From Nanobdellota archaeon (lineage in GTDB: Archaea > Nanobdellota > Nanobdellia > Woesearchaeales > SM23-78), in assembly GCA_038046485.1 (NCBI GenBank), contig JBBSWA010000019.1, positions 1 through 18,003 on the forward strand: a stretch of DNA of 18,003 nt, in the 5' to 3' direction. The position numbers and the translations under genes were made by a program. The notes beneath the pieces are model-generated. The model saw nothing but the letters and a program-made list of their open reading frames with translations, made no database searches and had not been told where the DNA came from. Below, in pieces: positions 1 to 17,127 of this stretch. Each line of letters begins with the position of its first letter. The stretch's first letter is position 1.

Positions 1-386
1 CAGCCTAAACATCCCCCCAACCCAAAGGGTTGCCCGAATTATGCAACACAGCATTAACGAATAACCTCTAGATGATGATGCAAAATGACCGAACTCTACA
101 TTCCAAGAACAGAAAAAGAAGCACATGCAGCTTTGGCGCTAGGCTACAAACCCATTTACTGCACCTGCGTATTGTGCAAACTCATCGGAAAAAAATGGAT
201 GGTCCGAGATCATGTAAAAGAAGAACTGAACCTATTTTAAACACAATCAAGGTAGGGTTAAGTCAAGTGAAGGGTGCTTGGCAGTCTCGAACGGCTTTGC
301 GAGCAATTTGCTCTCTCGCTGCCGTTCGGTCGTATGAAACAAAGGTTTATTTTTGACACTTAACTTGACAATACCTCAAGGTAGTT

Positions 387-398
387 AACTTTATATAC
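387..398 (+). promoter_or_regulatory. Archaeal BRE/TATA-like promoter (AACTTTATATAC) for the leader micro-ORF / thrS transcript
   Basis: TTTATATA lies at 389-396. The same (A/G)A(N)(N)TTTATATA pattern recurs upstream of other first genes at 3261, 11866 and 12481. The predicted TSS of about 418-422 sits just upstream of the SD GGTGGT at 432-437. Confidence 0.5.
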
Positions 399-440
399 TT
401 CCGTCTTCTCCATAACCCCATAACAAACCCAGGTGGTCAT

Positions 441-509
441 ATGAACGCAAACCAAGAGATGAACAGTAAAACCCTTTCTTCTACTACAACCACCACTACG
501 ACCGTATAG
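441..509 (+). CDS. 22-aa leader-type micro-ORF MNANQEMNSKTLSSTTTTTTTV (7 consecutive Thr codons) upstream of thrS
   Basis: The ATG at 441 is preceded by GGTGGT (432-437) with 3-nt spacing. Codons 483-503 read ACT ACA ACC ACC ACT ACG ACC and the TAG stop is at 507-509. A 5-bp hairpin, CGACC(499-503)/GGTCG(509-513), covers the last Thr codons and the stop. Confidence 0.55.
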   Translation: MNANQEMNSKTLSSTTTTTTTV

Positions 510-526
510 GTCGCTCATTTACCCTG

Positions 527-532
527 TTTTTT
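527..532 (+). terminator. Oligo-T tract (T6) between the leader micro-ORF and thrS; candidate archaeal intrinsic terminator/attenuator
   Basis: CCCTGTTTTTTG begins 18 nt after the micro-ORF stop. Archaeal RNA polymerase terminates at T5+ runs. The function here is inferred only. Confidence 0.35.
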
Positions 533-574
533 GTCAACAATACCAAAAGATAATTAAAGAATACTCGACAAAAG

Positions 575-2506
575 GTGATGATCATGATCGAACTCACATT
601 CCCAGATGGAAACAAGAAGAAATACAAGGAAGGAATAACTCCGATTGAGATAGCAAAAGAAATCTCAAGAAGTTTAGGAGAAAAGGCCTTAGCAGCAAAG
701 CTAGGGGATAAGGTAATTGACCTTCTTTCTCCCATTAAAGAGAATGACTCATTTAAGATTTTGACTTTTGAAGATCCGGAAGGAAAGGCGGCCTTTTGGC
801 ATACCGCTGCTCATTTATTAGGGGATGCCGTCTTGCAATTATACCCCGATGCCAAACGCACCATTGGCCCGGCCATCGAAGAAGGATTCTACTACGATTT
901 TTTTAGAGAAAAGCCCTTCACCCCCGAAGAGATGGAAAAGATCGAAAAGCGCATGAAAGAAATCGCGAGTCAAGATGCCCCCCTTTTCAGAGAAGACTTC
1001 ACCGCAGCAAAAGCAAAAGAATTCTATCACGACAACCCTTTCAAGCAAGAGCTCATCGACGAATTCGCACCGCAAGGAAAAGGCTCATTGTCCTTTTACT
1101 GCCATGGAGAGTATAAAGATCTCTGTAAAGGCGGCCACGTCGCAAGTACAGGGTTACTCAAGGCAATTAAGCTCCTCAAGACCTCAGGTGCTTATTGGCG
1201 GGGCAATGCCAGTAATCCGCAATTGCAGCGCATCTATGGCATCGCCTTCCCAGCGGAAAAAGAGTTAAAAGAATACGTACAACGCCTGGAAGAAGCAGAG
1301 AAACGCAATCACGTCAAACTAGGGCAAGAACTTGACTTATTCAGTACCGAAGCAGAGATGTTAGGTGGGGGCTTAATCCTCTGGCATCCGAAAGGGGCAC
1401 TAATCCGTTACCTCGTCGAAGATTTCTGCATGAAAGAACATCTTGCAAAGGGATATGATATTGTTTCGACTCCCCACATTGGAAAAAGCACTTTGTGGAA
1501 AACATCTGGTCATCTAGACTTTTATAAGGAGTCCATGTATTCGCCGATCGACATAGAAGGACAAGAATATTATCTAAAACCTATGAATTGCCCATTTCAT
1601 ATACTGATTTATAAGAACCGATTACGCAGCTATCGTGACCTTCCTTTACGATATGCTGAGTGGGGAACTGTCTATCGCTATGAAATGAGTGGGGTCTTGA
1701 ACGGATTGCTTCGTGTACGAGGATTTACACAAGATGATGCACATCATTTTGTACAACCTGAAAAGATGCCGGAAGAAATAGATTTTGTGCTTAACTTTTG
1801 TTTAGATATCTTACGTAATTTGGGCTTAACAAACTTCCAAGCCTATCTGAGCACGCGTCCAGAAGGAAAGAAAGCAGTAGGAGATCCAAAACAGTGGGAA
1901 GAGGCACAAATAGCATTAGAAGAGGCTCTTAAACGAGCAAAGCTCCCATACCAGATAGATGCAGGAGGAGGAGCATTTTATGGACCAAAAATTGATTTAA
2001 AATTCAAAGATGCCTTGAACCGAGAATGGCAATTAAGCACGATTCAATTTGACTTCAACTTGCCGCAGCGTTTTGACATTAGCTACATTGGAGAAGACGG
2101 ACAACGGCATCAACCCTACATGGTTCATCGGGCTTTACTCGGATCTATGGAGCGCTTTTTTGGAACATTAATTGAGCATTACGCCGGCCGATTCCCTCTC
2201 TGGCTAAGTCCTGTACAAGTAAAAGTGCTCAACCTCACCGATCGCCAAATAGATTATGCCAAGAAGGTTACCGAACAAATGAAGCAAGCAGGTCTACGTG
2301 TAGAGTTAGACGACCGTTCCTTGACGTTAGGCAAAAAGATCCGCGACGCCCAATTAGAACAAGCGAATTTCATCCTGGTCGTAGGTGACAAAGAAATGCA
2401 AGAAAACACAGTCAACATTCGTACTCGAGAAGGTGGCGTGCAGGGTACGAAAGAAATCAATGTCTTCATTGCTGAACTACTCGAAGAAGTTAGAAAACGC
2501 GTTTAA
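575..2506 (+). CDS. thrS: Threonyl-tRNA synthetase, bacterial/eukaryal-type architecture (TGS domain, HxxxH editing domain, class II core, anticodon-binding domain)
   Basis: The ORF encodes 643 aa. The N-terminal TGS-like segment is ELTFPDGNKKKYKEGITP. The editing-domain motif is HTAAHLLGDAV. Class II core motifs include YLKPMNCPFH, FRYE-like YRYEMSG and RVRGFTQDDAH, and the C-terminal anticodon-binding domain is present. The true start is probably ATG 578 or 584, just after the SD GGTGAT at 574-579. Confidence 0.97.
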   Translation: MMIMIELTFPDGNKKKYKEGITPIEIAKEISRSLGEKALAAKLGDKVIDLLSPIKENDSFKILTFEDPEGKAAFWHTAAHLLGDAVLQLYPDAKRTIGPAIEEGFYYDFFREKPFTPEEMEKIEKRMKEIASQDAPLFREDFTAAKAKEFYHDNPFKQELIDEFAPQGKGSLSFYCHGEYKDLCKGGHVASTGLLKAIKLLKTSGAYWRGNASNPQLQRIYGIAFPAEKELKEYVQRLEEAEKRNHVKLGQELDLFSTEAEMLGGGLILWHPKGALIRYLVEDFCMKEHLAKGYDIVSTPHIGKSTLWKTSGHLDFYKESMYSPIDIEGQEYYLKPMNCPFHILIYKNRLRSYRDLPLRYAEWGTVYRYEMSGVLNGLLRVRGFTQDDAHHFVQPEKMPEEIDFVLNFCLDILRNLGLTNFQAYLSTRPEGKKAVGDPKQWEEAQIALEEALKRAKLPYQIDAGGGAFYGPKIDLKFKDALNREWQLSTIQFDFNLPQRFDISYIGEDGQRHQPYMVHRALLGSMERFFGTLIEHYAGRFPLWLSPVQVKVLNLTDRQIDYAKKVTEQMKQAGLRVELDDRSLTLGKKIRDAQLEQANFILVVGDKEMQENTVNIRTREGGVQGTKEINVFIAELLEEVRKRV

Positions 2507-2877
2507 CGTCGTTTTTTCTTTTTTCCAGACTTTTTAGCTTTTTTAGCTGGTTTTTTAGTCTTTTTAGAAGCTTTTTTCTTGGACTTAGATGCCTTTTTCG
2601 CTTTTTTCTTTGATTTTAGAGCTTTTTTGTGTTTTTTAGCTGGTTTCTTAACTTTAGAAGGTTTTTCGCTCTTTTCTTCCTCTTCTCCAGTCTTTTCTTC
2701 CCCAGTTTCATCTTCAGAAACCTCTTCTTTAGGTTCTTCTACAGCTTCATCATAGCCGGCCATGAAGGCTTCTTCTTGAGGAGAGATTTCGTCGTCCTTA
2801 ACCAGCTCTTCTCGGGCGTTGTCGTCGTATACTTCATCAAACTCAGGTTTGTCTTCCGACTCTTCATCGTATCCCAT
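2503..2877 (-). CDS. Bipartite-charge protein of unknown function: acidic N-terminal half plus histone-H1-like polylysine C-terminal tail (KKPAKK repeats)
   Basis: The ORF encodes 124 aa. Residues 1-70 are D/E-rich (MGYDEESEDKPEFDEVYDD...). Residues 70-124 are K/A/S-rich and end in KKKKRR. An internal DNA repeat, TTTTTTAGCTGGTTT (2539-2553 and 2632-2646), encodes KKPAKK twice. Its stop shares the palindromic TTAA with the thrS stop. Confidence 0.7.
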   Translation of the reverse strand: MGYDEESEDKPEFDEVYDDNAREELVKDDEISPQEEAFMAGYDEAVEEPKEEVSEDETGEEKTGEEEEKSEKPSKVKKPAKKHKKALKSKKKAKKASKSKKKASKKTKKPAKKAKKSGKKKKRR

Positions 2878-2902
2878 AGTTCTCCCTGGAGCGTGGTTTT
2901 AT

Positions 2903-3215
2903 TTAAAGATTTCGCTCGGATTTCGTCGTCGAGACTGAATCCTTTTTATGTTTGAGAATAACCTCTTCCTCACCGCGTTTAATGGCAAGCACGAAAAGCG
3001 CCTTGTTTTCCTTTTCGAGTTTATCAAGAACCACCGTCAAACACTTATGAATAAGTGGTTCTTGATCATTCCAGATTCCACATATGAATACGTGAGATTT
3101 AGACCGCCGTCCAGAAAATAGTGGAATCTGTTATTTCAATCTGCGCCTGTTTGCGCACGAGCTCTTCTTCCAGAATCTGAATTTTTTTCTCGTAGTCAAC
3201 TGGCAAGGGTTCCAT
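2903..3215 (-). pseudogene. Small ORF apparently interrupted by a +1 frameshift (38-aa upstream ORF 3099-3215 plus an open downstream frame 2906-3130)
   Basis: The upstream ORF MEPLPVDYEKKIQILEEELVRKQAQIEITDSTIFWTAV starts at ATG 3215, about 27 nt from a TTTAATAC TATA-like box (3239-3246, minus strand). A second frame stays open from 3130 to the stop at 2903-2905 and has no in-frame ATG: ...SGRRSKSHVFICGIWNDQEPLIHKCLTVVLDKLEKENKALFVLAIKRGEEEVILKHKKDSVSTTKSERNL. The two frames overlap at 3099-3130 around a TATTTTCTGG run. Confidence 0.3.
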
Positions 3216-3256
3216 GCCTTATTTTATAGAACAGTAGGTATTAAAGTTTTCGTGGC

Positions 3257-3270
3257 AAGGTTTATATACT
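3257..3270 (+). promoter_or_regulatory. BRE/TATA-like promoter (AAGGTTTATATACT) for the 85-aa gene / gatD operon
   Basis: TTTATATA lies at 3261-3268, inside the 5' extension of the 3252 ORF call, which argues for the ATG 3312 start. The SD-like GGGTGA is at 3302-3307. Confidence 0.5.
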
Positions 3271-3311
3271 CCTTCCTCGTCAGTATTTTCAATATTAAAA
3301 AGGGTGAGATC

Positions 3312-3569
3312 ATGAACGCATTAAAACACCACCGAATTGCAAAGAAGGCGGCCTCGTTAAGTGTGCGCGCTTTGCTGAAGATGGGCCACGTTGTAAAAAA
3401 GTTACATGAGAAGGGTTACGATGAAAGAGCAGCTAAGCTTTTATTAGCCACTTCCGAGCGCCTTATGCAGGAAGCAAGCCGTTTAGAGCGAGAAGCCAAG
3501 CGCTCAAAAGGAAGTAAGCCTAAGAAGAAAGGAAAAGTGAAGAAAAGAAGTAAGAAGAAGAGAAGATGA
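3312..3569 (+). CDS. Small helical protein with polybasic C-terminal tail, translationally coupled to gatD; function unknown
   Basis: The 85-aa product is MNALKHHRIAKKAASLSVRALLKMGHVVKKLHEKGYDERAAKLLLATSERLMQEASRLEREAKRSKGSKPKKKGKVKKRSKKKRR. Its stop TGA overlaps the gatD ATG (ATGA at 3566-3569). The ORF-track start at 3252 would include the TATA box. Confidence 0.65.
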   Translation: MNALKHHRIAKKAASLSVRALLKMGHVVKKLHEKGYDERAAKLLLATSERLMQEASRLEREAKRSKGSKPKKKGKVKKRSKKKRR

Positions 3570-4858
3570 ATGCAAAAGAGGGCGACTGTGTACGGGTCAT
3601 ATGTAAAGACGAATCCATCGAAGGAGTTTTACTGCCCTCAAAAGAAGACTTCATCACCCTTAAATTAAGTAGTGGCTATAATCTAGGAATTGAGCGTTCT
3701 CGCATCGTAAATATAGAGCTCTTACAACCCAAAACGCCTAAGCCGACTGAAAAGAAGCCCATAAAGGTTTCTCCCAATCTTCCGACGATTTCCATTCTGC
3801 ATACGGGGGGAACGATTGCATCGAAGGTAGATTATGATACGGGTAGTGCCGGGCCACATTTCACCCCAGAAGATCTATTGGAAATGTTTCCCGAACTAAG
3901 CAAGCTCGCAAATATTCGAAGCCGCTTAGTAGCAAGTATGTGGTCACAAGACATGCGTTTTTCGCATTACAATTTCTTAGCTAAAGAAGTAGAGAGGGAA
4001 ATCGCGCAAGGAGCAGATGGGATCATAATCCCACAAGGGACAGATTATATCCACTACACAGCTGCCGCACTAAGCTTCATTTTTGAATCGCTTCCCATAC
4101 CGATCTTGATCGTGGGAGCGCAACGCTCCTCGGACAGGGGGGGCAGCGATGCGGCGCTGAACTTACTAAGTGCCATCTATTTCATGACAAAAACAGATTT
4201 CGCTGAAGTGGGCGTGTGCATGCATGCGCATATGAGCGATAGTGAGTGTTGGATTTTGCCAGGAACGAAATGCCGAAAAATGCACACTTCACGCCGGGAC
4301 GCATTTCGACCAATAAATGAGCAAGCATGGGCGTACGTTAATTTCTTAGAAGAAAACATTACTTGGGTTCGTAAAGAATATAAGAAGAAAGAGAAGAAGA
4401 AGCCCGTATTGAAGTTGTTTAAGGACAATATCAAGGTGGGCTTGTTAAAGACGCATCCGAACATGTTTGCAGAAGAATTCTCGTTCTTTGAAGATTATGA
4501 TGGTCTTGTGCTAGAAGCTTCAGGTTTAGGGTGTTTACCGATTACAGAAAAAGATGAAATGACACGAGAATCAGGGCGGATCAAACATAGTTTGTCTACA
4601 TTACTAAAAAAGGGGATCGCGATCGTCGAAGCTCCACAAACACTATACGGCCGCATAAACATGAATGTATACGACGATCAGCGGATCGCGCAAGAAATGG
4701 GTATTCTAGGTCATCTATGTGACATGACTCCAGAAACCGCCTTCATCAAATTGGCCTGGCTACTCAGCAATTATAAGAAGGATAAAATAAAAGAGTTGTA
4801 CGAGAAAAACCTACGCGGAGAGATATCAGATCGTTCGACAGATTATTTCTTGGTATAG
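3566..4858 (+). CDS. gatD: Glutamyl-tRNA(Gln) amidotransferase subunit D (asparaginase-like)
   Basis: The ORF encodes 430 aa. An N-terminal small beta domain is followed by the type-I asparaginase signature ILHTGGTIAS and the motif GIIIPQGTD. Both size and layout are typical of archaeal GatD, and gatE lies nearby. Confidence 0.95.
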   Translation: MNAKEGDCVRVICKDESIEGVLLPSKEDFITLKLSSGYNLGIERSRIVNIELLQPKTPKPTEKKPIKVSPNLPTISILHTGGTIASKVDYDTGSAGPHFTPEDLLEMFPELSKLANIRSRLVASMWSQDMRFSHYNFLAKEVEREIAQGADGIIIPQGTDYIHYTAAALSFIFESLPIPILIVGAQRSSDRGGSDAALNLLSAIYFMTKTDFAEVGVCMHAHMSDSECWILPGTKCRKMHTSRRDAFRPINEQAWAYVNFLEENITWVRKEYKKKEKKKPVLKLFKDNIKVGLLKTHPNMFAEEFSFFEDYDGLVLEASGLGCLPITEKDEMTRESGRIKHSLSTLLKKGIAIVEAPQTLYGRINMNVYDDQRIAQEMGILGHLCDMTPETAFIKLAWLLSNYKKDKIKELYEKNLRGEISDRSTDYFLV

Positions 4859-4859
4859 C

Positions 4860-5582
4860 TCAACGAGGAGGAAAGGTCATAGACAAGCCATTTGGGAGCA
4901 GTTCTCCATTAAGGCCTTTTACATTCTGACCAAGAACTTCATAGCCAGAACGAAGAGCGTCGTCTTCAGAAGGATACACATCACAGGAGGGGAAATAAAC
5001 CGTAAGGAAGGTTTCTTTGGACAGTTTGTAAGAGAAGCCTGTTAAAACGACTTGTGGATGGCATTCATAGCGAGGGCGGGTTAAGGAAAAAATAACAGCC
5101 TCGTCTAAGACGATAAGTCTAGGTAATGGATCGGTAACAGTGCAAGCATATTTTTGTGGGATCATGGAACAAGCAACTTCAGAAAGAGAAGGCAGTCCAA
5201 GTGTTTCAGCGCGTTGATAAAGCGCAAGGAAGTTTTGGCGGGTGTTTTCATAATCTTCTGCATAAGGGAGTACCGCGGCTGCTCCATTGAAAGTGAGATG
5301 AAAATCACAGGCAGCAGGAGTGCAAGAGATCATTGCGCGAACTTTGTCCGGGTGTTGCGTTCCATAATGAAAGAGGGGGGTAATAACATTTTGAAATTGG
5401 TACGTTAAATCATTCAATGAGGTTTTTAGGCTGGTTCGAAGTTCTTGGAGTTCAAGAGGCCGATCAACTGAAGTAGAGGATGCCTGAGCAGACGCCGAAG
5501 AAGGGGATATGGGAGCAGGAAGTTGCAGAGGGGTATGGGTAAGAGAAAGGGCAGCAACCAATACGGCTAGACTATTTCGCAT
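4860..5582 (-). CDS. Predicted secreted Cys-containing protein, unknown function
   Basis: The likely start is MRNSLAVLVAALSL... at 5582, which lies about 27 nt from a TTTAAAAT TATA box on the minus strand. There is a signal-peptide-like N-terminus with an AQA motif and a P/S-rich linker. The mature part contains 7 Cys, and no family was recognised. Use of G/C-ending codons looks higher than in the neighbouring genes. Confidence 0.7.
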   Translation of the reverse strand: MRNSLAVLVAALSLTHTPLQLPAPISPSSASAQASSTSVDRPLELQELRTSLKTSLNDLTYQFQNVITPLFHYGTQHPDKVRAMISCTPAACDFHLTFNGAAAVLPYAEDYENTRQNFLALYQRAETLGLPSLSEVACSMIPQKYACTVTDPLPRLIVLDEAVIFSLTRPRYECHPQVVLTGFSYKLSKETFLTVYFPSCDVYPSEDDALRSGYEVLGQNVKGLNGELLPNGLSMTFPPR

Positions 5583-5603
5583 GGTCTTAGGAGAGGGGGT
5601 GTG

Positions 5604-5634
5604 CATTTTAAACCTTGGGGATAAGTATAAAAAG
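5604..5634. promoter_or_regulatory. Back-to-back TATA boxes for the divergent secreted-protein gene (minus) and gatE (plus)
   Basis: The minus-strand AAGGTTTAAAATG (5604-5616) is centred about 27 nt from ATG 5582. The plus-strand GTATAAAAA (5625-5633) is centred about 27 nt from ATG 5656. Both spacings fit leaderless transcripts. Confidence 0.45.
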
Positions 5635-5655
5635 GGCAAAAAACTAGGGAAGGAT

Positions 5656-7080
5656 ATGTCTTTAGACTATGCTCGGTTAGGGTTTAAGTGTGGTTTGGAG
5701 ATCCACCAACAGTTAGAGGGGGAAAAGTTATTCTGCCATTGTCCTACTCAGATCCGCAAGGAAGGCGCTGACTTTCTAGTGAAACGTCGTTTAAGAGCTT
5801 CAGCAGGGGAATCGGGCGCAAGGGATCAAGCAGCGGCCTTTGAGCAAGTCAAGCAAAAGGAGTTCATTTACCAGGGGTATCACGATTCCATTTGCTTGGT
5901 GGAATTAGATGAAGAGCCTCCCCACAATATAAACCCTCAAGCATTGCAAACCTCCATTCAAATAGCCAAGCTTCTCAACTGCAAGATCGCGGATCGGATC
6001 ATTTTCATGCGAAAAACTATAGTGGACGGAAGCAACACCTCGGCCTTTCAGCGTACCGCATTAATCGGTCGTAACGGATACTTAGAAGTGAATGGAAAAA
6101 AGGTGGGCATCACCGCGGTTTGCCTCGAAGAAGAAGCGTGCCAGGTCATGGAGCGAAAGGAAAAAGAAGATACCTACAATTTATCCAGGTTAGGGATTCC
6201 ACTCATTGAGATTGCTACGGACGCTTCCATCCATTCCCCTGAAGAATGTAAAATCGTAGCAGAAAAACTCGGGCTCATATTACGAAGTGTTCCGGGGATG
6301 AAGCGAGGCATTGGAACTATCCGTCAGGATGTGAACATTTCCATTAAGGGTGGTGCACGAACGGAAATCAAGGGGTTTCAAGAATACAAGGCCATTCCAA
6401 AAGTAGTTGATGTTGAAGTAATCCGGCAGTTGGATTTAGTCAAGCAAGGAAAACCCATTGATTCAGGCGTTCGAAAAGCCGAGGCCGATTTCACCACTTC
6501 TTTTTTAAGACCCATGCCAGGTGCCGATCGCATGTATCCAGAAACAGACGTCCAAATTATAATTCCTAAAATAGAGGAGCTGGCGAAAGTTGAATTATTA
6601 GAGGATAAAGCAAAGAAATTTATGGACTTAGGAATGAGTAAGGACTTAGCCATGAAGATCGTGAAATCAAGTGATTTGGCTTTGTTTGAAAATCTCTTAA
6701 AGTACAATAAGGTAAAGCCGGCCTTCATCGCAGAAACATTAATCTCCTATGATTCAGATATAAAAGGTAAATTCAAGGAAGCCGATCCGAAAAAGGTAAC
6801 TCCTAAACATTGGGAAGAACTCTTCAAAGAGTTGAATGAGGAAAAGATTGCAAAGACTTCAGTATTGGAAATTCTAGGAGACATTTGCACGGGAAAAAAG
6901 ATGGACTTGAAAAACTACGAAATTGTATCCGATGATGAATTAAAAAAAGAGCTGGAAAAGGTAATAAAGGAAAACCCTTCATCCCCCCCAGGAATGATCA
7001 TCGGTAAAATCATGGAGAAGTACAAAGGAAAAGTGGATGGAAAAAAGGTAGCTGAGTTAGCGAGCAAGATAAAGAGGTAA
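5656..7080 (+). CDS. gatE: Glutamyl-tRNA(Gln) amidotransferase subunit E, unusually short form (474 aa)
   Basis: The start MSLDYARLGFKCGLEIHQQLEGEKLFCHCP is a GatE-type N-terminus. Further matches are CLVELDEEPP, DGSNTSAFQRT, LSRLGIPLIEI, GTIRQDVNISI, RPMPGADRMYPETD and a C-terminal YqeY/GatB-type tail (IIGKIMEKYKGKVDGKKV). The ORF-track start at 5509 overlaps the divergent promoter region. Confidence 0.93.
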   Translation: MSLDYARLGFKCGLEIHQQLEGEKLFCHCPTQIRKEGADFLVKRRLRASAGESGARDQAAAFEQVKQKEFIYQGYHDSICLVELDEEPPHNINPQALQTSIQIAKLLNCKIADRIIFMRKTIVDGSNTSAFQRTALIGRNGYLEVNGKKVGITAVCLEEEACQVMERKEKEDTYNLSRLGIPLIEIATDASIHSPEECKIVAEKLGLILRSVPGMKRGIGTIRQDVNISIKGGARTEIKGFQEYKAIPKVVDVEVIRQLDLVKQGKPIDSGVRKAEADFTTSFLRPMPGADRMYPETDVQIIIPKIEELAKVELLEDKAKKFMDLGMSKDLAMKIVKSSDLALFENLLKYNKVKPAFIAETLISYDSDIKGKFKEADPKKVTPKHWEELFKELNEEKIAKTSVLEILGDICTGKKMDLKNYEIVSDDELKKELEKVIKENPSSPPGMIIGKIMEKYKGKVDGKKVAELASKIKR

Positions 7081-7083
7081 AAC

Positions 7084-7686
7084 ATGTTTGTATATCTACT
7101 CATCGGAATCATCATTGTGTTATGGGCACTGCACAAGTTCTGGTTCCTGCGTGACCCGGATCGTAAAATACCCGCTGGAAATAACATCGTAAGTCCAGCA
7201 GATGGCCGTGTAATTCGCATCATGCCCTTTGACAACACCGAAGTCATCGTGGAAAAAGGCTTAGCAGGGCAAATTAAGGTCTTAACAGAAGATGTGGCTG
7301 CAGAAGGAAACATTGTAAGCATCTTCATGAGTCCAATGGATGTACACATCAACCGCTCGCCGATCAAGGGTGAAGTCAAGTACATCAAGTACCATTCAGG
7401 CAAGTTTAGACCGGCAAAGTATTTTGATGCTGTTTTTGACAATGAAAATGCCCAAACCTTGATTGTAGATAAAAAGCTTCGAGTAAAAGTCATCCAAATC
7501 GCAGGCATCATGGCTCGCCGTGTTGTTTCATTTCTAAAACCAGGCCAATGGGTGGAGAAGGGTGAACGCATCGGTTTGATCAAGTTAGGTAGTCAGTGCA
7601 CATTAGTCCTTCCCAAATCAGTCAAGTTAAAGGTCAAAGCAGGCGATTATGTGTATGGGGGAAGTACGATCATAGGAACGCTTTAG
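7084..7686 (+). CDS. psd: Archaeal-type phosphatidylserine (archaetidylserine) decarboxylase proenzyme
   Basis: The ORF encodes 200 aa with an N-terminal TM helix. Motifs include SPADGRV and the LGSQ self-cleavage-type motif (KLGSQCTL) near the C-terminus. The size matches the short PSD-related family. Confidence 0.88.
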   Translation: MFVYLLIGIIIVLWALHKFWFLRDPDRKIPAGNNIVSPADGRVIRIMPFDNTEVIVEKGLAGQIKVLTEDVAAEGNIVSIFMSPMDVHINRSPIKGEVKYIKYHSGKFRPAKYFDAVFDNENAQTLIVDKKLRVKVIQIAGIMARRVVSFLKPGQWVEKGERIGLIKLGSQCTLVLPKSVKLKVKAGDYVYGGSTIIGTL

Positions 7687-7725
7687 AACAAAAGCTTTTT
7701 TAAGGGTAGCCGTTTCTAGAAATGC

Positions 7726-8244
7726 ATGGCAAAGGGGTATCTTTCTATTTTCCAGGTAACATTCCCAGACATAGTGACCTTCCTAAACGTCTCATTAGGC
7801 TTCTCATCCATGGCAGCAAGCGCATTGCAGCATTGGGATGTAGCCTTTGCTCTTCTCATCGGTGCCATGATCATGGATTACTTGGATGGAAAGGTAGCCC
7901 GGGCGCTGAACCAAACCTCAGAACTCGGAACCAATCTAGACTCACTCTCTGACATGGTCTCATTCGGTGCCGCTCCTGCCTTTTTGCTCCTCTCAAAAAA
8001 TGGTTTTGCACCGATACTGTGGGTTACCAGCGTAATCTTCATTTCCTGCGGCGCCTTTCGTCTGGGAAGGTACAATCTATTGCATAAGGTAGTAAAGGGT
8101 TGGGTGGGAATGCCAATTACAACAAATGCCATCATCCTTCCTGTGGCGAGTTTCTTAACCTCAAACACAACAGTTTTAGCGATCCTTATGCTTCTTTCAA
8201 GTGGCTTGATGGTAAGTTCAATCAAGGTGAAGAGGTTCTTCTGA
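7726..8244 (+). CDS. pssA: CDP-alcohol phosphatidyltransferase, likely archaetidylserine synthase
   Basis: It carries a perfect D-x2-D-G-x2-A-R-x8-G-x3-D-x3-D motif (DYLDGKVARALNQTSELGTNLDSLSD). The protein is multi-TM and 172 aa long. The serine specificity is inferred only from the flanking psd and carS genes. Confidence 0.8.
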   Translation: MAKGYLSIFQVTFPDIVTFLNVSLGFSSMAASALQHWDVAFALLIGAMIMDYLDGKVARALNQTSELGTNLDSLSDMVSFGAAPAFLLLSKNGFAPILWVTSVIFISCGAFRLGRYNLLHKVVKGWVGMPITTNAIILPVASFLTSNTTVLAILMLLSSGLMVSSIKVKRFF

Positions 8245-8780
8245 TGTTTTTGCAAGTATTATACCTTTTATTACCTGCAGCCTTTGCAAACATGGCCCCG
8301 ATTTTCTTCAAGGATAGCTGGAAATGGCTTGACCGGCCTATAGATGGAAATAAAAAATGGAAGGGAAAACCCATTCTAGGGTCGCACAAGACCTGGCGGG
8401 GTTTCATTGCCGGAATTGTCCTAGGCATCCTTGTTGCCTTCTTGCAAAAACAACTTTGGGAGGCAGGAATTGGAAGGGCTTGGATTCTCATCAACTATGA
8501 ACATCTCTGGTTGTCACTGGGCTTTTGGATGGGCTTTGGCGCCATGTTCGGGGATAGTGTAAAGAGTTTTTTCAAGCGCCGGTCTAGTGTCAAACCGGGC
8601 GACCGATTCATGCCTTGGGATCAGATCGATTGGATTCTAGGCAGTTTGGTCTTTGTTTCGTTGTTCGTCCAAGTTCTTCCATGGCAGGTCTGGGCTTGGT
8701 GGTTGATCATCGGCTTTGCAGGCCACATCATCATTCGCCACATCTCTTATTGGTTAAAGATGGACAAGGATAAGTGGTAG
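8244..8780 (+). CDS. carS: CDP-archaeol synthase (CarS, DUF46 family)
   Basis: The start MFLQVLYLLLPAAFANMAPIF overlaps the pssA stop (TGATG). Motifs HKTWRGFIAG, GDSVKSFFKRR and PWDQIDW resemble the CarS family. The product is a 178-aa membrane protein. The upstream part of the ORF-track call (8100-8243) is pssA read in another frame. Confidence 0.85.
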   Translation: MFLQVLYLLLPAAFANMAPIFFKDSWKWLDRPIDGNKKWKGKPILGSHKTWRGFIAGIVLGILVAFLQKQLWEAGIGRAWILINYEHLWLSLGFWMGFGAMFGDSVKSFFKRRSSVKPGDRFMPWDQIDWILGSLVFVSLFVQVLPWQVWAWWLIIGFAGHIIIRHISYWLKMDKDKW

Positions 8781-9311
8781 CTATTCATACACCAACTTTC
8801 CAATCTCTTCATATTTGTATTCTTGCAAGACCCCATAAACTTCATAGTCTTTGATGAATTCAGAAAACCTTTGTCGGATGCCCTTGAAGATCTTGTCAAA
8901 GTGGCCTTGGCTTTCAGCCATAATATCCAAAATATAATCCCATTTTCCGATGAGGCCAGCAATGTATGTTACATTCTTATTATTTTGTAAGAAGGTCAAA
9001 AATTCTTTTTCTTTTTCCGGACTTGGATTGTAGATGGAGATGAAAACATAGTTGATGATTGGAAAACCCATACTGGGAGGATTATAGACGGGCTTGAATG
9101 CGTAAAGAACTTTGGCTGTAATGAGTTTCTGGATGCGGTTGCGAATGGCATCTCGAGATAATCCTACTTTGCGAGAGAGTTCAGAAAGGGGTTTTCGGGC
9201 ATTATCATCCAGCTCCTTGAGAAGAACAAGATCGTACCGGTCAAATTTATACGGTTTTCCGTAAGTAAGGGAAGGGTCAAAACGGCCTGTTTCTATTTTT
9301 TCTGACTTCAT
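8781..9311 (-). CDS. Lrp/AsnC-family transcriptional regulator
   Basis: The HTH_AsnC-like segment is LLKELDDNARKPLSELSRKVGLSRDAIRNRIQKL. It is followed by a RAM-like effector domain (VFISIY...VTYIAGLIGKWDYILDIMAE). A minus-strand TATA (TTATAAAAAAG, 9330-9340) lies about 25 nt upstream of ATG 9311. Confidence 0.85.
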   Translation of the reverse strand: MKSEKIETGRFDPSLTYGKPYKFDRYDLVLLKELDDNARKPLSELSRKVGLSRDAIRNRIQKLITAKVLYAFKPVYNPPSMGFPIINYVFISIYNPSPEKEKEFLTFLQNNKNVTYIAGLIGKWDYILDIMAESQGHFDKIFKGIRQRFSEFIKDYEVYGVLQEYKYEEIGKLVYE

Positions 9312-9428
9312 AAAGCGTAATATGCTATTCTTTTTTATAAATTTATCGTATTTTGCGCTTTTTTATAACAATATATATTTATATTAATATATGTAACTAT
9401 TAAGTAATAACAATAAAAGGTGATGAAA

Positions 9429-10004
9429 ATGAATACCCCCCAACCCAATCAAGATTTACTCAATGTAGTTAACGATATTGGTAACTTAATCGAACCAGAC
9501 CGAATCAGCAATACTCCTGAACTAAACCAGGTAAGATTTGGACTTCATGTACCTAAAATCCTTTTTAGAGATCCTGAACCCGGAGTATTAAACTTTGCAC
9601 TTAGCATGCCCTACCAAGTAGGAGGAGAAAATGAAGAGTATCTAGTAACTCCTGTACGATTGAATGGGTTTGGAAACAGAGCTATGTTTAACGTAGGATT
9701 CACACCTGAAGGAAGCGCTTTTCGTCAATACGGCCAAATGAGTCCTGAAGCAGCAAAAGAGCTTACAGAAAAATTTATTAAATACCGACCCGGACTTGAA
9801 AACGCTGTTGTAACCCTCGAAAAAGTTTCCCCTACAATTTATGAAACTCCACAAAATTCACTTAGAGGGCCTGCATTAAACGCATTTCATGCAAGAGGAA
9901 ATGTTCAAGTAACCCCTCCTTATAAGGGTTGGGCAAAGATGGCCGAAGTAGGATTAGTAGGTGGATTATGGAAATATGTAACCGTAGAAAAAGAAAAAGA
10001 GTAA
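9429..10004 (+). CDS. Hypothetical protein (191 aa), no recognisable family
   Basis: There is a strong SD (AAAAGGTGATGA, 9415-9426) 2-4 nt before ATG 9429 and a very AT-rich promoter region upstream. The ORF-track start at GTG 9420 lies inside the SD. The sequence MNTPQPNQDLLNVVNDIGN... gave no motif I recognise. Confidence 0.7.
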   Translation: MNTPQPNQDLLNVVNDIGNLIEPDRISNTPELNQVRFGLHVPKILFRDPEPGVLNFALSMPYQVGGENEEYLVTPVRLNGFGNRAMFNVGFTPEGSAFRQYGQMSPEAAKELTEKFIKYRPGLENAVVTLEKVSPTIYETPQNSLRGPALNAFHARGNVQVTPPYKGWAKMAEVGLVGGLWKYVTVEKEKE

Positions 10005-10006
10005 GC

Positions 10007-11104
10007 CTAATCCATCAGGTCCAAGTACATGGCAGCCCACAGCATGCCTTCATCACTCACGTGCAAAGCCGTCTTGTAGGGTTTTCCAAATGCATCAAAC
10101 ACTTCTAGAAAATTCTTATGGCGCTGGATGAGTTCAGTGTACTTTTTTAAATACACTTGGGCATAATTCAAATCGTACTTCTTTACAACCTGCAAGAAAC
10201 ACAATCCCAAGTGCATGAAGATGGCCGTGTGCTCATACTCCTTAGTCAACAATTGCACAGGAATCATACGGTGTTTAGCATGACCATTGGTATATTTTAG
10301 GGGAAAAGGCTGATCCAGGCCACTTTTGCGTAGCGTATCAAAGGCTTTTTGAAATCGTACTTTATCATCAAAGATCCCCGTCCAGAAAGGGAAGGTGGTG
10401 GCGTCCCCCGTAACAATGTTATGGCCCGAAAGGTCTTCTAAAAAGTGGGTTCCCGTCCAAAAATGGCGTTCGATGGTTTTAGCATAATCATATTGCTTAA
10501 GGGGGTTTTCAAGGCCTAACTTAGTGGCATAATGACTGAGCATGCCCAGCATGCAATTGGTATAGCAATCACTTTTACGAATAGCATGGTCTTTGATGCT
10601 GCTGACATGCACGTTTTTTCGAAGCAATCCAGAGGAAGGATCAATGTATTTTACGGCTTTTCGAATTTCGTTGTTAATGAAATCTTTGTGTTTTCGAACA
10701 AGGTCTTGAGCATCGGCAAGGGATAGGCTTCGTAAAAGGTAAGCGACAGATTCAGGGCTATACGTTGGAAAGTCAAAGGCCTTTCCTTGGGGAGTAATGG
10801 AGGTGGTTATCTTGCCACCTTTTTCAAAGCAGGTAAGAGCGTATTTTAGGGTATTTAAGACTTGGTTTTCATACCCCAAGTCCAATAGACTCTGCGTGCA
10901 CATGCCAAAGTCTCGGGTGTAAAACTGGCAGTAGTGCCCCGTGCTGGTCATGAAGTATTCATATTCATGGTTGTAGCAGTCCAGAATGATTTGGCGACAA
11001 ATCGCTTTTACATCACCAGGGTATTGGTTAAATCCCTTGCTATGAACATTTCGAGCTCGTTTGAAGATGCGCCAACCTTCTGAGATCATAGTAGGAGTAA
11101 TCAT
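10007..11104 (-). CDS. (alpha/alpha)6-barrel glycoside-hydrolase-like protein (GDE_C/GH63-like); function tentative
   Basis: The likely start MITPTMISEGW at 11104 is preceded by GGAGGA. The ORF-track start at 11197 would overlap the upstream VOC gene. The motifs YTRDFG and DEGMLWAA and the helical-repeat character resemble amylo-alpha-1,6-glucosidase-like barrels. The assignment is from memory only. Confidence 0.6.
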   Translation of the reverse strand: MITPTMISEGWRIFKRARNVHSKGFNQYPGDVKAICRQIILDCYNHEYEYFMTSTGHYCQFYTRDFGMCTQSLLDLGYENQVLNTLKYALTCFEKGGKITTSITPQGKAFDFPTYSPESVAYLLRSLSLADAQDLVRKHKDFINNEIRKAVKYIDPSSGLLRKNVHVSSIKDHAIRKSDCYTNCMLGMLSHYATKLGLENPLKQYDYAKTIERHFWTGTHFLEDLSGHNIVTGDATTFPFWTGIFDDKVRFQKAFDTLRKSGLDQPFPLKYTNGHAKHRMIPVQLLTKEYEHTAIFMHLGLCFLQVVKKYDLNYAQVYLKKYTELIQRHKNFLEVFDAFGKPYKTALHVSDEGMLWAAMYLDLMD

Positions 11105-11156
11105 AATATCCTCCAATACGAAAGGATTGTATTTAAAGGTATATGATGTGAAAGCC

Positions 11157-11555
11157 CTATTTTTGTGAAGGGAGTAAGATCTCCAGAAAATTCCCATCTG
11201 GATCTAAAAAAATCGTGATCTTACCATAACTGCGCTGTTCCGAACGAGTGAGCAGCTTTACTCCCTTTTTCTCAAGTTGTTGATTCATGGCTTCGAGTTC
11301 ATCTTCATCGTGAGCTTGAAATTGTACTAAAACAGGATTCTTTGTATTATACTCCCAAGTATACCTTTTTCGGTTGCTAACTGGTTCCAGAGCAAAAGTT
11401 GTTTTGCCCGTGTCAAAACCATACCAATTATCTTTTTCATTCATTCCTTTAAGAGGATTCATCCCAATGACATCTCGATAGAAACGTATGAGTTTAGAGT
11501 AATCTTCTGAGTACAAGTTGACATGACTGATGCGCCAATTTATTTTCTTTTCCAT
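11157..11555 (-). CDS. VOC-family (glyoxalase/bleomycin-resistance/dioxygenase fold) protein
   Basis: The start MEKKINWRISHVNLYSEDYSKLIRFYRDVIGM is preceded by GGTGGTGA. The C-terminal FLDPDGNFLEIL is typical of the VOC family. The 5' part of the ORF-track call (11556-11684) overlaps the tRNA gene and is rejected. Confidence 0.85.
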   Translation of the reverse strand: MEKKINWRISHVNLYSEDYSKLIRFYRDVIGMNPLKGMNEKDNWYGFDTGKTTFALEPVSNRKRYTWEYNTKNPVLVQFQAHDEDELEAMNQQLEKKGVKLLTRSEQRSYGKITIFLDPDGNFLEILLPSQK

Positions 11556-11584
11556 GCGATCACCACCTATAATTATAAAAAAGG

Positions 11585-11811
11585 CGAGCCTGGGAGGACT
11601 TTCATAGTTCACTACGAAGGTTTTTTGAACCAGCGAAGTTGCGTCAGCGACTTCGCGGCTCAAAGTTGTGAACGAAGTGAACAACTTTGAACCCCCGACC
11701 TACTGCTGTTTCCGCTTCTCGGCTGATGCTTTTGATACCGCAAGGGCACAGGTAAGCGATCGTCATCAAAGCTAGGAGGCAGTTGCGCTATCCAGGCTGC
11801 GCTACAGGCTC
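11585..11811 (-). tRNA. tRNA-Arg (anticodon CCT) interrupted by two introns: 65 nt at 37/38 and about 87 nt in the T-loop (59/60, or 56-59)
   Basis: This is a hand fold of the minus strand. The acceptor stem is GAGCCTG(11811-11805)/CAGGCTC(11592-11586), 7/7 paired. The D arm is GCGC-AGCCTGGATA-GCGC. The anticodon stem is ACTGC(11783-11779)/GCAGT(11706-11702), with loop CTCCTA+A. The variable loop is AGGTC. The T stem is GGGGG(11696-11692)/CCTCC(11597-11593), with T-loop TTCAAA+T. The discriminator is G and no CCA is encoded. The exons sum to 75 nt. Confidence 0.85.
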
Positions 11812-11835
11812 GTATCGTCGAAAAGGGAGCCCAGA

Positions 11836-11843
11836 TTTATAAA
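11836..11843 (-). promoter_or_regulatory. TATA box (TTTATAAA) for the tRNA-Arg gene
   Basis: The box lies 25-32 nt upstream of tRNA position 1 (11811) on the minus strand, which is the canonical archaeal spacing. Confidence 0.5.
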
Positions 11844-11897
11844 GGAAGCGGTGCCAGGCAAGTAAAGTTTATATATTCAAAGAAAAGGAAAAAGGGA

Positions 11898-12377
11898 ATG
11901 AAAAAAGAAGAGGATTTCTTTCAGACCAATCCTCAAAAAGCCTCAGCAAAGGTGACGATTAATTCATTTATGATGGGCAGTTTATTTTTTATCTTAACCT
12001 TAATCTGGTCGTTAAATCCGGAGAAATTCAGCCCCTCCATCATAGCTCAATTGGTTTTAGCAGTCCCTCTTCTTTTTATGTCGAGCCTTGCTTATTCAAA
12101 GATTGGGTATTGGAAAGAGATAAAACTCTGGGATTATCTAGGGTGGTTTACAAATAACATCGGAAATATTTTCATCCTAAACGTGATTGGGTTAATGACG
12201 GCCATGTTTTACCCAACCTTAGCATGGATCTATTTCAGTTTAATTATTGTGTTAATGGGAGTCTATTCTTGGATCAATTGCATATACAATCCCCATTCAT
12301 TGCGGGAGAAGGCGTTCAAACTGATCTTTTTCTTAGTGGTACTTCTGCTGGGCGGAATCTTACCTTCACTAACTTGA
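11898..12377 (+). CDS. Hypothetical integral membrane protein (about 4 TM helices)
   Basis: The ORF encodes 159 aa with hydrophobic segments (LFFILTLIWSL, LVLAVPLLFMSSLAY, IFILNVIGLMTAMFY, LIIVLMGVY, IFFLVVLLLGGIL). The TATA box AAAGTTTATATATT at 11863-11876 is about 27 nt upstream of the ATG, which fits a leaderless transcript. Confidence 0.75.
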   Translation: MKKEEDFFQTNPQKASAKVTINSFMMGSLFFILTLIWSLNPEKFSPSIIAQLVLAVPLLFMSSLAYSKIGYWKEIKLWDYLGWFTNNIGNIFILNVIGLMTAMFYPTLAWIYFSLIIVLMGVYSWINCIYNPHSLREKAFKLIFFLVVLLLGGILPSLT

Positions 12378-12533
12378 TCCCATTCAGGAAGTGTTGGAAG
12401 AAAGGTATATTAGTTTCTATATAGAAAAGTATAAAAAGAGCCCCACACCAGTATACCTTTTCCCAGAAAAATAGAAACATTTATATACTAGGGGTACTAA
12501 TATACACAAAGATCACAATGGTGAACAACCGCA

Positions 12534-12950
12534 ATGGTCATACTGTACGATCAATACAACCTTCCCGAAGACATATTCGAGATCACATTCGCAACCAAGC
12601 AACAAGTCATCGTGGCTCGGCTGTTAGTTGAAGAGATGAAGCGCAAAGAAGGCGAAATCGGAAAAACCGAGATGTCTCTCTTCGCAACAGCCCTGCACGA
12701 CGGCACCCTGGTGGAAATGCCCCACGAGAACAAGTTCATCAAGTCCAAGACTGAAAAGTTGTCGTACAACAAGCGGCAATTTTACGATCGCATCCTCACT
12801 CCCATGAAAACCATGGGATTGATCGACTACGACTTGTACAAGAAGACGTACAAGTTAAGTGAAAAGTTCAACAAGAACATGATGCGCATCGGCCTTATGT
12901 GGCTTCAAGAGCTTCGAAGGCCTCCGCAAGAGTTCAGGTTGAAAAGGTAA
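12534..12950 (+). CDS. Hypothetical protein (138 aa), possible wHTH-like C-terminal half
   Basis: The ORF shows a marked preference for C/G-ending codons (TTC, ATC, GAC, AAG, CTG) relative to neighbouring genes. TATA AACATTTATATACT lies at 12476-12489. The segment YNKRQFYDRILTPMKTMGLIDYDLYKKTYKLS resembles a winged-helix wing. Confidence 0.7.
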   Translation: MVILYDQYNLPEDIFEITFATKQQVIVARLLVEEMKRKEGEIGKTEMSLFATALHDGTLVEMPHENKFIKSKTEKLSYNKRQFYDRILTPMKTMGLIDYDLYKKTYKLSEKFNKNMMRIGLMWLQELRRPPQEFRLKR

Positions 12951-12951
12951 A

Positions 12952-12974
12952 CATCCATTCACAAGGAATGGATG
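12952..12974 (+). other. Perfect 9-bp stem-loop immediately after the stop of the 138-aa gene
   Basis: CATCCATTC (12952-12960) pairs with GAATGGATG (12966-12974) around a 5-nt loop. No T-run follows, so a terminator role is uncertain. Confidence 0.6.
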
Positions 12975-12989
12975 CAGTACATCACAGTC

Positions 12990-13056
12990 AAAAGCCCCGG
13001 CTTTACACCCTCCCCCCTCTGAAAAATCAATGATTTTTCTCTAGCCGGGTGCTTTT
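12990..13056. repeat. Nested inverted repeats: outer 13-bp stem enclosing a C-rich stretch and a 19-bp perfect palindrome
   Basis: The outer arms are AAAAGCCCCGGCT (12990-13002) and AGCCGGGTGCTTTT (13043-13056), with one bulged T. Inside lie CCCTCCCCCCTCT (13008-13020) and GAAAAATCAATGATTTTTC (13021-13039), a perfect palindrome about its centre. Confidence 0.8.
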
Positions 13057-13115
13057 ACAATCCTTAAATCACAACTTAGATCACAAAAACAACACGGGAA
13101 AAAGAGCGTGAGAAC

Positions 13116-13304
13116 ATGAAAGACAGCAAAACCAGCGAACTAGTCGCGCCAGAGTTACAGACGCCAACAAACCTAGAGCAGCAAGAAAAGATTGAAGTCG
13201 TCCTCTTCGATTATGAAGATGATGAATGTGCCTTCACTCTATCGTTTGAGTTCGTCTACACCTACAACCACAAGCTACAACAAGGCTTTGTCGAAATTCG
13301 CTAA
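13116..13304 (+). CDS. Small acidic hypothetical protein (62 aa)
   Basis: The product is MKDSKTSELVAPELQTPTNLEQQEKIEVVLFDYEDDECAFTLSFEFVYTYNHKLQQGFVEIR. The SD-like GTGAGA lies 3 nt before the ATG. The ORF ends 13 nt before the next gene's AGGAG-led ATG. Its codon style matches the 138-aa gene. Confidence 0.5.
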   Translation: MKDSKTSELVAPELQTPTNLEQQEKIEVVLFDYEDDECAFTLSFEFVYTYNHKLQQGFVEIR

Positions 13305-13317
13305 AACAGGAGCGAAG

Positions 13318-13932: not shown

Positions 13933-13970
13933 CACGAAAAGTTTAAAAAAAGATACTCTTATACGATACT

Positions 13971-15053: not shown

Positions 15054-15105
15054 GCTTGTGCCGATCTCATTAATTTGAGCCTCAATCCAACACTCTTCCA
15101 ATTAC

Positions 15106-15432: not shown

Positions 15433-15470
15433 AATGGAAAGAATACCCCAACCTATTTAAATATTCCTAT

Positions 15471-15492
15471 ATTGATACAATATTGTATCAAT
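15471..15492. promoter_or_regulatory. 22-bp perfect palindrome ATTGATACAATATTGTATCAAT; candidate operator in a divergent promoter region
   Basis: The palindrome was verified base by base. It lies immediately upstream of the TATA box of the 108-aa wHTH gene and about 55 bp upstream of the TATA (TTTTATA, 15544-15550) of the 91-aa gene. Confidence 0.7.
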
Positions 15493-17125: not shown

Positions 17126-17127
17126 GC

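Follow-up and report, generated by a model that had tools for sequence, protein, structure and literature searches.

Ribosome-mediated attenuation is a textbook bacterial mechanism. In Escherichia coli the thr operon is headed by the leader peptide thrL (21 residues), the Phe-rich leader peptide pheM stands directly upstream of the synthetase genes pheST, and thrS, the gene for threonyl-tRNA synthetase (ThrRS), carries a translational operator through which ThrRS regulates its own synthesis by mimicry of the anticodon arm of tRNA-Thr. In Archaea it is oligo-U tracts, and not hairpin terminators, that end transcription, and a working archaeal attenuator would therefore need a different output device. 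In Firmicutes, a Thr T-box lies upstream of thrS (PMC2494555), and in mycobacteria leaderless small open reading frames (sORFs) rich in Cys codons act by terminator-free translational attenuation (bioRxiv 10.1101/834739). An earlier reading of the DNA studied here, made from its letters without database searches (the sequence-only reading), was aware of no such control established for archaeal synthetase genes, and our literature search likewise found no described example of an archaeal amino-acid-sensing leader peptide; archaeal regulation by upstream open reading frames (uORFs) was met only as a generic mention in a tool paper. Here we describe a 22-codon leader open reading frame (micro-ORF) with seven successive Thr codons, which lies 75 nt upstream of thrS in an 18,003-nt stretch of DNA from a Nanobdellota archaeon (contig JBBSWA010000019.1, positions 1 to 18,003; hereafter the window). 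We consider it rather probable, judging from the sequences compared, that the micro-ORF is a Thr-tRNA-sensing regulatory uORF controlling thrS in cis, and it appears to be, at the level of sequence, the best candidate found here for an archaeal ribosome-based amino-acid sensor of the leader-peptide type.

The leader micro-ORF and its orthologs

The micro-ORF has initiation signals of its own, and the elements at this end of the locus are the following (window positions).

390-397, plus strand: promoter P1, a consensus archaeal TATA box (TTTATATA), read from the sequence
432-437, plus strand: Shine-Dalgarno (SD) sequence GGTGGT of the micro-ORF (GGTGGTC, 432-438), with the ATG 2 nt further on
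441-509, plus strand: leader micro-ORF MNANQEMNSKTLSSTTTTTTTV, 22 codons, from ATG441 to TAG509, taken from the open reading frame (ORF) list
483-503, plus strand: seven Thr codons in a row, presumed to act as the sensor (ACT ACA ACC ACC ACT ACG ACC, then GTA and TAG)
584-2506, plus strand: thrS, encoding a bacterial-type ThrRS with TGS, SAD editing, class II core and anticodon-binding domains (Pfam)

The TATA box seen by the sequence-only reading is present, although the coordinates given for it there (389-396) were off by one base, and the 22-codon micro-ORF and its SD were found exactly where that reading had put them. Other window genes have TATA boxes of the same form as P1, and from the geometry we infer a transcription start for P1 near ~420. 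The remark that most other first genes look leaderless also agrees with the sequence, as five window genes have a TTTAWATA box starting 29-30 nt before the start codon.

Orthologous leaders were found in two relatives. The first, L001, whose ThrRS is 86% identical to that of the window (84.6% in the comparison of four-fold sites given below), was the only close relative to come out of ThrRS scans of genome and metagenome contigs, two ThrRS protein searches (full length and N-terminal 200 aa) and a pattern scan of viral contigs. The second, L031 (JGI), with ThrRS 55% and GatD 68% identical to those of the window, was found together with L032 (Logan) through a GatD synteny search; the leaders of L031 and L032 are identical. 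The gene order small Cys-containing protein, leader, thrS, GatD is common to the three loci, and the micro-ORFs of the relatives are the following.

L001, 2828-2889: micro-ORF MKANKSVTNIISSTTTTTTV, with a run of six Thr codons
L031, 3790-3849: micro-ORF MRIENISKNILPSLTTTTA, with a run of four Thr codons

The sequence-only reading had made its case depend on a Thr-rich uORF upstream of related thrS genes, and one is present in both syntenic loci found. As in a leader-peptide attenuator, a short ORF with initiation signals of its own lies in the 5' leader of thrS in all three loci. The P1 8-mer TTTATATA also heads the leaders of L001 and L031, as sequence comparison showed, and the start region (G/A)GTGGT-N-ATATG is common to all three. 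Moreover, the Thr run, exactly one small codon after it (GTA or GCT) and the TAG are constant, while the N-terminal two-thirds of the peptide diverge among the loci, and the micro-ORFs differ in length by multiples of 3, with the frame kept. In the alignment of the three leaders the regulatory codons are thus kept and the rest of the peptide drifts, and a constant Thr run in a drifting peptide is, as far as these sequences tell, the pattern of bacterial leader peptides.

In GatD synteny, thrS is absent from L030 and from three loci at ~60% GatD identity, and there is no Thr-run uORF at the DPANN thrS loci L011 (Micrarchaeota) and L029 (Diapherotrites). One protein that ranked as a close relative by score (P0002, 693 aa) was rejected, as its sequence is internally duplicated and its identity is 57%.

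The threonine codons and the constraint on them

As the sequence-only reading had counted, eight of the 22 codons of the micro-ORF encode Thr, seven of them in succession (483-503), and all four Thr codons are used. The seven-residue Thr stretch is the longest homo-amino-acid run of the whole window in six-frame translation. In 28 other thrS loci, searched on both strands, runs of at least four Thr codons occur three times, and a run of at least six only in the orthologous leader of L001. Within the archaeal loci, a Thr run in a short intergenic ORF started by ATG is confined to the three thrS leaders, where the cluster of cognate codons before thrS amounts to 7, 6 and 4 Thr codons in the window, L001 and L031, respectively; no other cognate-codon uORF was found in ~90 kb of archaeal loci. 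The Thr run is no chance feature.

The codons themselves are conserved as well as the residues. Between the window and L001, the third positions of TCT TCT ACA ACC ACC ACT ACG ACC GTA are identical in 9/9 cases (roughly p = 0.001), whereas the four-fold sites of thrS under conserved residues are identical in 87 of 188 (46%), and the third base of conserved Thr codons within thrS is kept in 6 of 21. This difference points to a constraint at the RNA or DNA level that overlaps the Thr codons. The conserved block that includes the run continues to position 525, with 47 nt at 93.6% identity to L001. Two pairings are candidates to account for the constraint, namely a hairpin that spans the stop codon and a helix between the SD of the micro-ORF and its Thr codons. 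The features concerned at the end of the block are the following.

499-513, plus strand: hairpin H1, CGACC-GTATA-GGTCG (arms 499-503 and 509-513), spanning the last two Thr codons, the Val codon and the stop codon
514-525, plus strand: post-stop box CTCATTTACCCT (CATT...ACC), conserved and complementary to the AUG and GGU of a ribosome-binding site (RBS), with a putative role

The inverted repeat CGACC/GGTCG over the last Thr codons and the stop, which had been noticed in the sequence-only reading, lies at 499-513 as described there, and it is identical in L001. In L031 there is a different 5-bp hairpin, ACAGC-TTAG-GCTGT (3841-3854), over the last Thr codon, the Ala codon and the stop; it is shifted by 1-2 nt relative to H1, which makes this a conservation of position and not a covariation of columns. 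The chance of a 5-bp hairpin spanning the stop was ~0.06 in shuffles of the window and 0.09 in those of L031; taken singly, it is a weaker signal than the Thr run. CATT follows directly after the hairpin in L031 too. As for the second pairing, the SD GGTGGT (432-437) pairs with ACCACT (492-497) in 3/3 leaders in the RNAalifold consensus; this helix is uninformative because it is invariant apart from one G-U to A-U change, with no covariation. RNAalifold on the three leaders retains only this helix and the hairpin of the window and L001. In each species, the stop-codon hairpin would be unwound by a ribosome halted at the final three or four Thr codons, a geometry that is suggestive only.

A constrained block of this kind could also serve something other than the micro-ORF, either a small ORF on the opposite strand or a palindromic operator, CGACC-N5-GGTCG, bound by a transcription factor at the thrS-proximal promoter. 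The antisense ORFs are the following.

Window 518 to 360, minus strand: antisense ORF of 52 aa, MSDLYGRSGGCSRRKGF...
L001 2898 to 2809, minus strand: antisense ORF of 29 aa, MRDLYGRSGGCRRNDV...

Dual coding would explain the absence of synonymous change, and the ORF (MSDLYGRSGGC...) exists in both the window and L001, preceded by an SD-like AGGGT(A/G)AATG, which the post-stop box yields when reverse-complemented (the AGGGT stands 2-3 nt before the ATG of the antisense ORF). However, its frame would contain seven NGT codons in succession, which is unexpected for a protein, whereas in sense the same stretch is plainly a run of Thr codons, (ACN)7; furthermore, the two antisense ORFs differ in length (52 and 29 aa) and are unrelated outside the conserved DNA block. 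The palindrome lies ~75-85 nt upstream of thrS, where an operator could be sought, but in L031 its sequence is different and the Thr run nevertheless persists. We hold an antisense ORF or a DNA operator to be a very improbable explanation of the block.

Folding of the leader and termination

Several results weigh against a sensor that acts through this leader, and they are gathered in this section and the next. The comparison comprises three leaders only, from two clearly independent lineages, and in L001 an insertion of ~110 nt parts the SD GGTGGTC from the AUG of the micro-ORF, whose translation there may be weakened or altered. In its own structure this insertion (2714-2823) is a series of four small hairpins, one after another, whose loops are A-rich, and it includes a T5 run; neither an Rfam match nor a further copy in the DNA compared was found for it.

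The fold of the leader gives no sign of a switch. The z-score of the minimum free energy (MFE) of the whole leader is -0.08, that is, the leader is not unusually structured, and the z-scores of local folds are -1.0 to -1.2. When a ribosome footprint was masked at successive Thr codons of the window and of L001, no switch and no consistent opening of the thrS SD or AUG appeared; masking moved the accessibility of the thrS SD from ~0.2 to ~0.4, and inconsistently. The folding for alternative structures that the sequence-only reading had advised thus yielded neither a terminator/antiterminator switch nor significant masking of the thrS RBS. The post-stop box is the best RNAduplex partner of the thrS RBS in the three loci when the L001-specific insertion is disregarded, and in local MFE folds of the window, L001 and L031 it pairs with the thrS RBS, with 515-535 and 567-581 as the candidate masking helix. 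In a slightly longer fold of L001, however, it pairs with thrS codons 3-5 and not with the SD or AUG, and the energies of the duplex between box and RBS are no better than those of shuffles (for the window, p was ~0.02-0.04 when the RBS segment was taken wide and 0.41 when it was taken narrow; for L001, 0.40-0.82; for L031, 0.20; across one set of shuffles, 0.2-0.47). A helix of the post-stop box with the thrS SD and AUG that masks the RBS is therefore not claimed here. The post-stop box sits at the edge of the footprint of a stalled ribosome.

Termination after the micro-ORF was considered at a single tract.

527-532, plus strand: T6 tract, candidate archaeal termination signal for P1 transcripts, 18 nt after the stop of the micro-ORF

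The tract is present as the sequence-only reading had it, but it does not hold as a conserved termination signal: L001 has T4 and T5 at this position, where no run in L031 reaches four T. In addition, runs of T5 to T7 occur in sense within genes, including thrS itself (898-904 and 2156-2161), the gap from H1 to T6 is 13 nt, and a scan for bacterial-type terminators and promoters called nothing at the leader. With the hairpin 13 nt from the tract, the tract missing from L031, T runs inside genes and no alternative structures, the anatomy of transcription attenuation that the sequence-only reading had sketched is not upheld. What stands of its proposal of an archaeal leader-peptide attenuator is its core, a probable sensor ORF with cognate codons, in which the Thr run is kept and the peptide drifts.

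The thrS start region and a possible second promoter

Between the T6 tract and thrS the following elements were recognised.

542-561, plus strand: motif ACCAAAAG and TATA-like element ATAATTAAAGAA, a possible promoter P2, ~30 nt before the thrS ATG
571-586, plus strand: RBS of thrS, with SD AAAGGTGAT (571-579) and start codon ATG (584-586)

The strong SD before thrS is as the sequence-only reading had described it. Among the candidate starts GTG575, ATG578 and ATG584, the last is favoured because the N-terminus MIELTFPDG is typical of a TGS domain. The SD is strong in the three loci, though its sequences differ (AAAGGTGAT in the window, AAGGAGGAT in L001 and AAGGTG in L031), and this conservation argues for translation of a leadered thrS mRNA.

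P2 is a further point against control through the leader. ACCA(A/C)AAAG precedes a TATA-like element in all three leaders, and the TATA-like 8-mers (TTAAAGAA, ATTAAATA and ATTTATTT) start 28-30 nt before the thrS ATG in the three loci, which is the geometry of the leaderless genes of the window. A TATA-like element conserved at this distance means that thrS may also be expressed as a leaderless mRNA, and P2 could make thrS independent of P1. The alternative that the sequence-only reading had named, leaderless thrS from a weak TATA-like element at 550-558, is plausible. P2 is unlikely to be the sole route, because the SD that has been kept would lie outside the leaderless transcript. We conclude from the sequences that there are probably two transcript routes to thrS, of which only the one from P1 would pass through the sensor.

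The same elements can be read as an independent mini-gene or small RNA. P1, SD, ORF and T6 would then form a self-contained unit, giving a Thr-rich micropeptide or an RNA of ~110 nt, with thrS leaderless from P2 and the link to ThrRS acting in trans or absent. This reading accounts for a T6 tract that lies 18 nt after the stop, as at ordinary gene ends in the window, for the TATA-like element at leaderless distance after the conserved ACCA.AAAG in three loci, and for the lack of a detectable RNA switch. On the other hand, the only conserved part of the peptide is a homopolymer of just the amino acid handled by the product of thrS, the signature of a sensor and not of a functional protein; the strong thrS SD, kept in three loci with differing sequences, would be left outside the leaderless mRNA; and the T6 tract is absent from L031. 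A mini-gene is in our judgement unlikely.

Repeats and an insertion were also observed near these promoters. A direct repeat of 21 nt (368-388, ACAATACCTCAAGGTAGTTAA; 537-557, ACAATACCAAAAGATAATTAA; 81% identical) has one copy just upstream of the P1 TATA box and the other overlapping the TATA-like element of thrS. Directly upstream of the P1 TATA box lies a ~120 bp insertion (247-384) resembling a miniature inverted-repeat transposable element (MITE), which lies between the two copies of a perfect direct repeat of 9 bp, TCAAGGTAG (247-255 and 376-384), has imperfect terminal inverted repeats (262-275 and 356-369), and is missing from the orthologous position of L001 and L031. At the RBS of thrS, the 12-mer AAAAGGTGATGA (570-581) recurs identically at 9415-9426 as the RBS region of the gene at 9420-10004; the GTG called as its start (9420) probably belongs to the SD, the real start probably being a later ATG.

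The host, ThrRS homologs and bacterial T-boxes

The window ThrRS is identical to MEK6963229.1 ('Nanoarchaeota archaeon'). That the host is an archaeon agrees with the presence of GatD and GatE in the window (Pfam), and the GatD homologues at 55-60% identity are named Woesearchaeota/Nanoarchaeota; GatD/GatE and the deposited names together indicate a DPANN (Woesearchaeota-like) archaeon. The metagenome-assembled genome that contains L001 is titled 'uncultured Methanosarcinales archaeon' and is probably mis-binned or mislabelled. Outside the lineage, the closest ThrRS homologues are from Chloroflexi, at 62-64% identity. The protein shows two affinities, with the first 200 residues matching DPANN best (Diapherotrites, 56%) and the core matching Chloroflexi (62-64%). 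The TGS domain (584-780, ThrRS residues 1-65) is present in the window only and absent from L001, L031 and the closest Chloroflexi homologues, which suggests, from the sequences at hand, a gain or loss of the domain with its boundary precisely at the start codon, while the leader and RBS region was conserved regardless.

An Rfam search detects T-boxes in seven bacterial thrS loci. Among the nearest bacterial thrS genes (Chloroflexi), that of L008 has a T-box with specifier ACC that ends 42 nt before the gene, and a T-box is also found in L007. As the nearest bacterial thrS genes are under Thr T-boxes, sensing of tRNA-Thr charging is the expected control logic for this gene family. In the archaeal leaders nothing of the kind was found: there was no match to the T-box covariance model in the window at the gathering score, in 200-650 at E up to 10, or in L001. 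Under the same thresholds, Rfam gave only two chance snoRNA-like matches on the window and 200-650, and ARAGORN reported no tRNA or tRNA-like element. A Thr-anticodon-like loop U-NGU-A (UGGUA, UUGUA or UCGUA) is absent from window positions 420-583 and from L031 3780-3905, where the loops are GUAUA and UUAG. The leader was thus rejected as a T-box riboswitch (no Rfam match, no Stem I or T-box bulge) and as an operator of the E. coli thrS type (no Thr-anticodon-like loop).

These searches bear on another explanation, namely that the leader is an RNA operator that works without translation, either by binding ThrRS, as at E. coli thrS, or by pairing of tRNA-Thr with ACC/ACU in a T-box-like way, the ORF being incidental. 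Such an operator would fit the nucleotide conservation beyond coding need (9/9 four-fold codons against a background of 46%), the involvement of Thr codons in the conserved helix and hairpin, and the use of T-boxes by the bacterial relatives. However, neither a T-box nor any other Rfam family matches at E up to 10, the loops GUAUA and UUAG are not of the U-NGU-A form, there is no Stem I-like scaffold in a leader that is not unusually structured, and the start codon, frame and stop are kept across indels. We regard an RNA operator of either sort as quite improbable.

Proposed mechanism and significance

The reading that we prefer is the Thr-tRNA-sensing uORF. Under it, we infer as follows where transcription starts, that the micro-ORF is translated and shares a transcript with thrS, and by which step and in which direction control is exerted. 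Transcripts would begin at P1 (~420), and a ribosome would load at GGUGGUC/AUG441 and meet the Thr codons, whose block stops one codon short of the UAG. At low supply of Thr-tRNA-Thr the ribosome would dwell on these codons, where it would cover the Thr codons otherwise paired with the SD of the micro-ORF (432-437 with 492-497) and also unwind the hairpin that spans the stop (499-513). The outcome would be an altered expression of thrS from the leadered transcript, 55-85 nt downstream. The output could run through coupling of ribosome and RNA polymerase at the U-rich stretch (polarity or FttA-type termination), or the ribosome could remodel the stop-codon hairpin and the thrS RBS.

As to direction, our committed guess is homeostatic, low charging leading to more ThrRS. 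By pausing, the ribosome would prevent the stop-codon hairpin and the post-stop box from adopting a repressing state; in that state 3' ends could form prematurely at the U-rich stretch, the thrS RBS could be masked, or both could happen. Up-regulation on shortage is expected by analogy with the T-box, pheM and poly-Cys sORF systems. Two precedents favour our reading in general, namely the terminator-free attenuation by codon-run sORFs in mycobacteria and the transcription-translation coupling and polarity, in which transcription depends on translation, that have been reported in archaea (PMC12548453). The simplest archaeal polarity logic would, however, predict less thrS transcription on stalling, a point that speaks against our reading, and we offer this particular direction and effector only tentatively, as rather doubtful.

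In general, DPANN archaea are taken to obtain their amino acids from hosts, and because of this dependence they may need synthetase levels matched to supply. If the proposal is true, the micro-ORF would be among the few cis-regulatory elements proposed for DPANN archaea. It would also exemplify regulatory turnover in one gene family, with a T-box RNA in the bacterial relatives and apparently the translating ribosome in the archaeal copies. Whether it is the first leader-peptide-type amino-acid sensor in Archaea, a DPANN Thr-codon uORF before a bacterial-type thrS that functionally replaces a T-box without a hairpin terminator, is to our mind an evenly balanced question. In any case, the locus is a concrete, conserved and small (~190 nt) test object for archaeal attenuation.

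Neighbouring genes

A small protein of ~51 aa with the motif GYKP(I/L)(Y/F)C(T/S)C..LCKL and no Pfam match is encoded, in each of the three loci, immediately upstream of the leader (window 85-240, L001 2494-2646, L031 3588-3749), and beyond this gene there is a divergent TrmB-family regulator in L001 (1697-2434) and L031 (1782-2507). At the other end, a gene on the minus strand (window 2503-2877) converges on thrS and overlaps its stop codon by 4 nt. Its product, a protein of 124 aa without a Pfam match, is acidic in the N-terminal half and ends in a C-terminal tail extremely rich in Lys. The same gene stands next to thrS in L001 (4722-5081), and L031 has at 6152-6520 a gene that is alike in strand and similar in size, the two features compared. 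Between gatD and gatE lies an ORF of 240-330 aa on the opposite strand, again without a Pfam match (window 4860-5639, minus strand; L030 3498-4484; L031 8107-8832), which in the window overlaps the called gatE start by ~130 nt. GatE is short here (473-523 aa), and only its GatB_N and GatB_Yqey domains were detected.

Comparison with known systems

Like the thrL, trp, his and leu attenuators, the archaeal leader has an ORF of ~20 codons in which the cluster of codons for the sensed amino acid is the only conserved feature. As in the thrL type, RNA pairings involve the regulatory codons, and sensing is proposed to be done by the ribosome. The differences are that the host is an archaeon, that the gene controlled would be a synthetase gene and not a biosynthetic operon, that the Thr run stands at the extreme 3' end of the ORF, and that there is neither a G+C-rich hairpin directly followed by a U-tract nor a predicted pair of mutually exclusive terminator and antiterminator. 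The pheM-pheST system has the same logic and the same class of gene, a cognate aminoacyl-tRNA synthetase; unlike the archaeal locus, it is bacterial and is read out by a Rho-independent terminator, where here the candidate is a bare oligo-T tract that is not kept in L031.

With the Thr T-box of Firmicutes and Chloroflexi, the archaeal leader would share the sensing of tRNA-Thr charging for the control of thrS, but the T-box binds tRNA directly and needs no translation, and the archaeal leaders have no match to its covariance model. The E. coli thrS operator is likewise a cis element in the thrS leader beside the RBS of a bacterial-type ThrRS; in contrast to it, the leader described here has no hairpins like an anticodon arm, and its conserved feature is an ORF with Thr codons. 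Furthermore, mycobacterial poly-Cys sORFs and attenuation of the ermC type resemble our proposal in that a run of codons for a single amino acid lies near the transcript start and a stalled ribosome would alter downstream structure and translation, although a duplex masking the RBS is demonstrable in those systems, while here the pairing of 515-535 with 567-581 does not exceed shuffles. Taken on the sequences compared, bacterial leader-peptide logic in a DPANN setting, combined with a different output device, is the candidate novelty of this locus.

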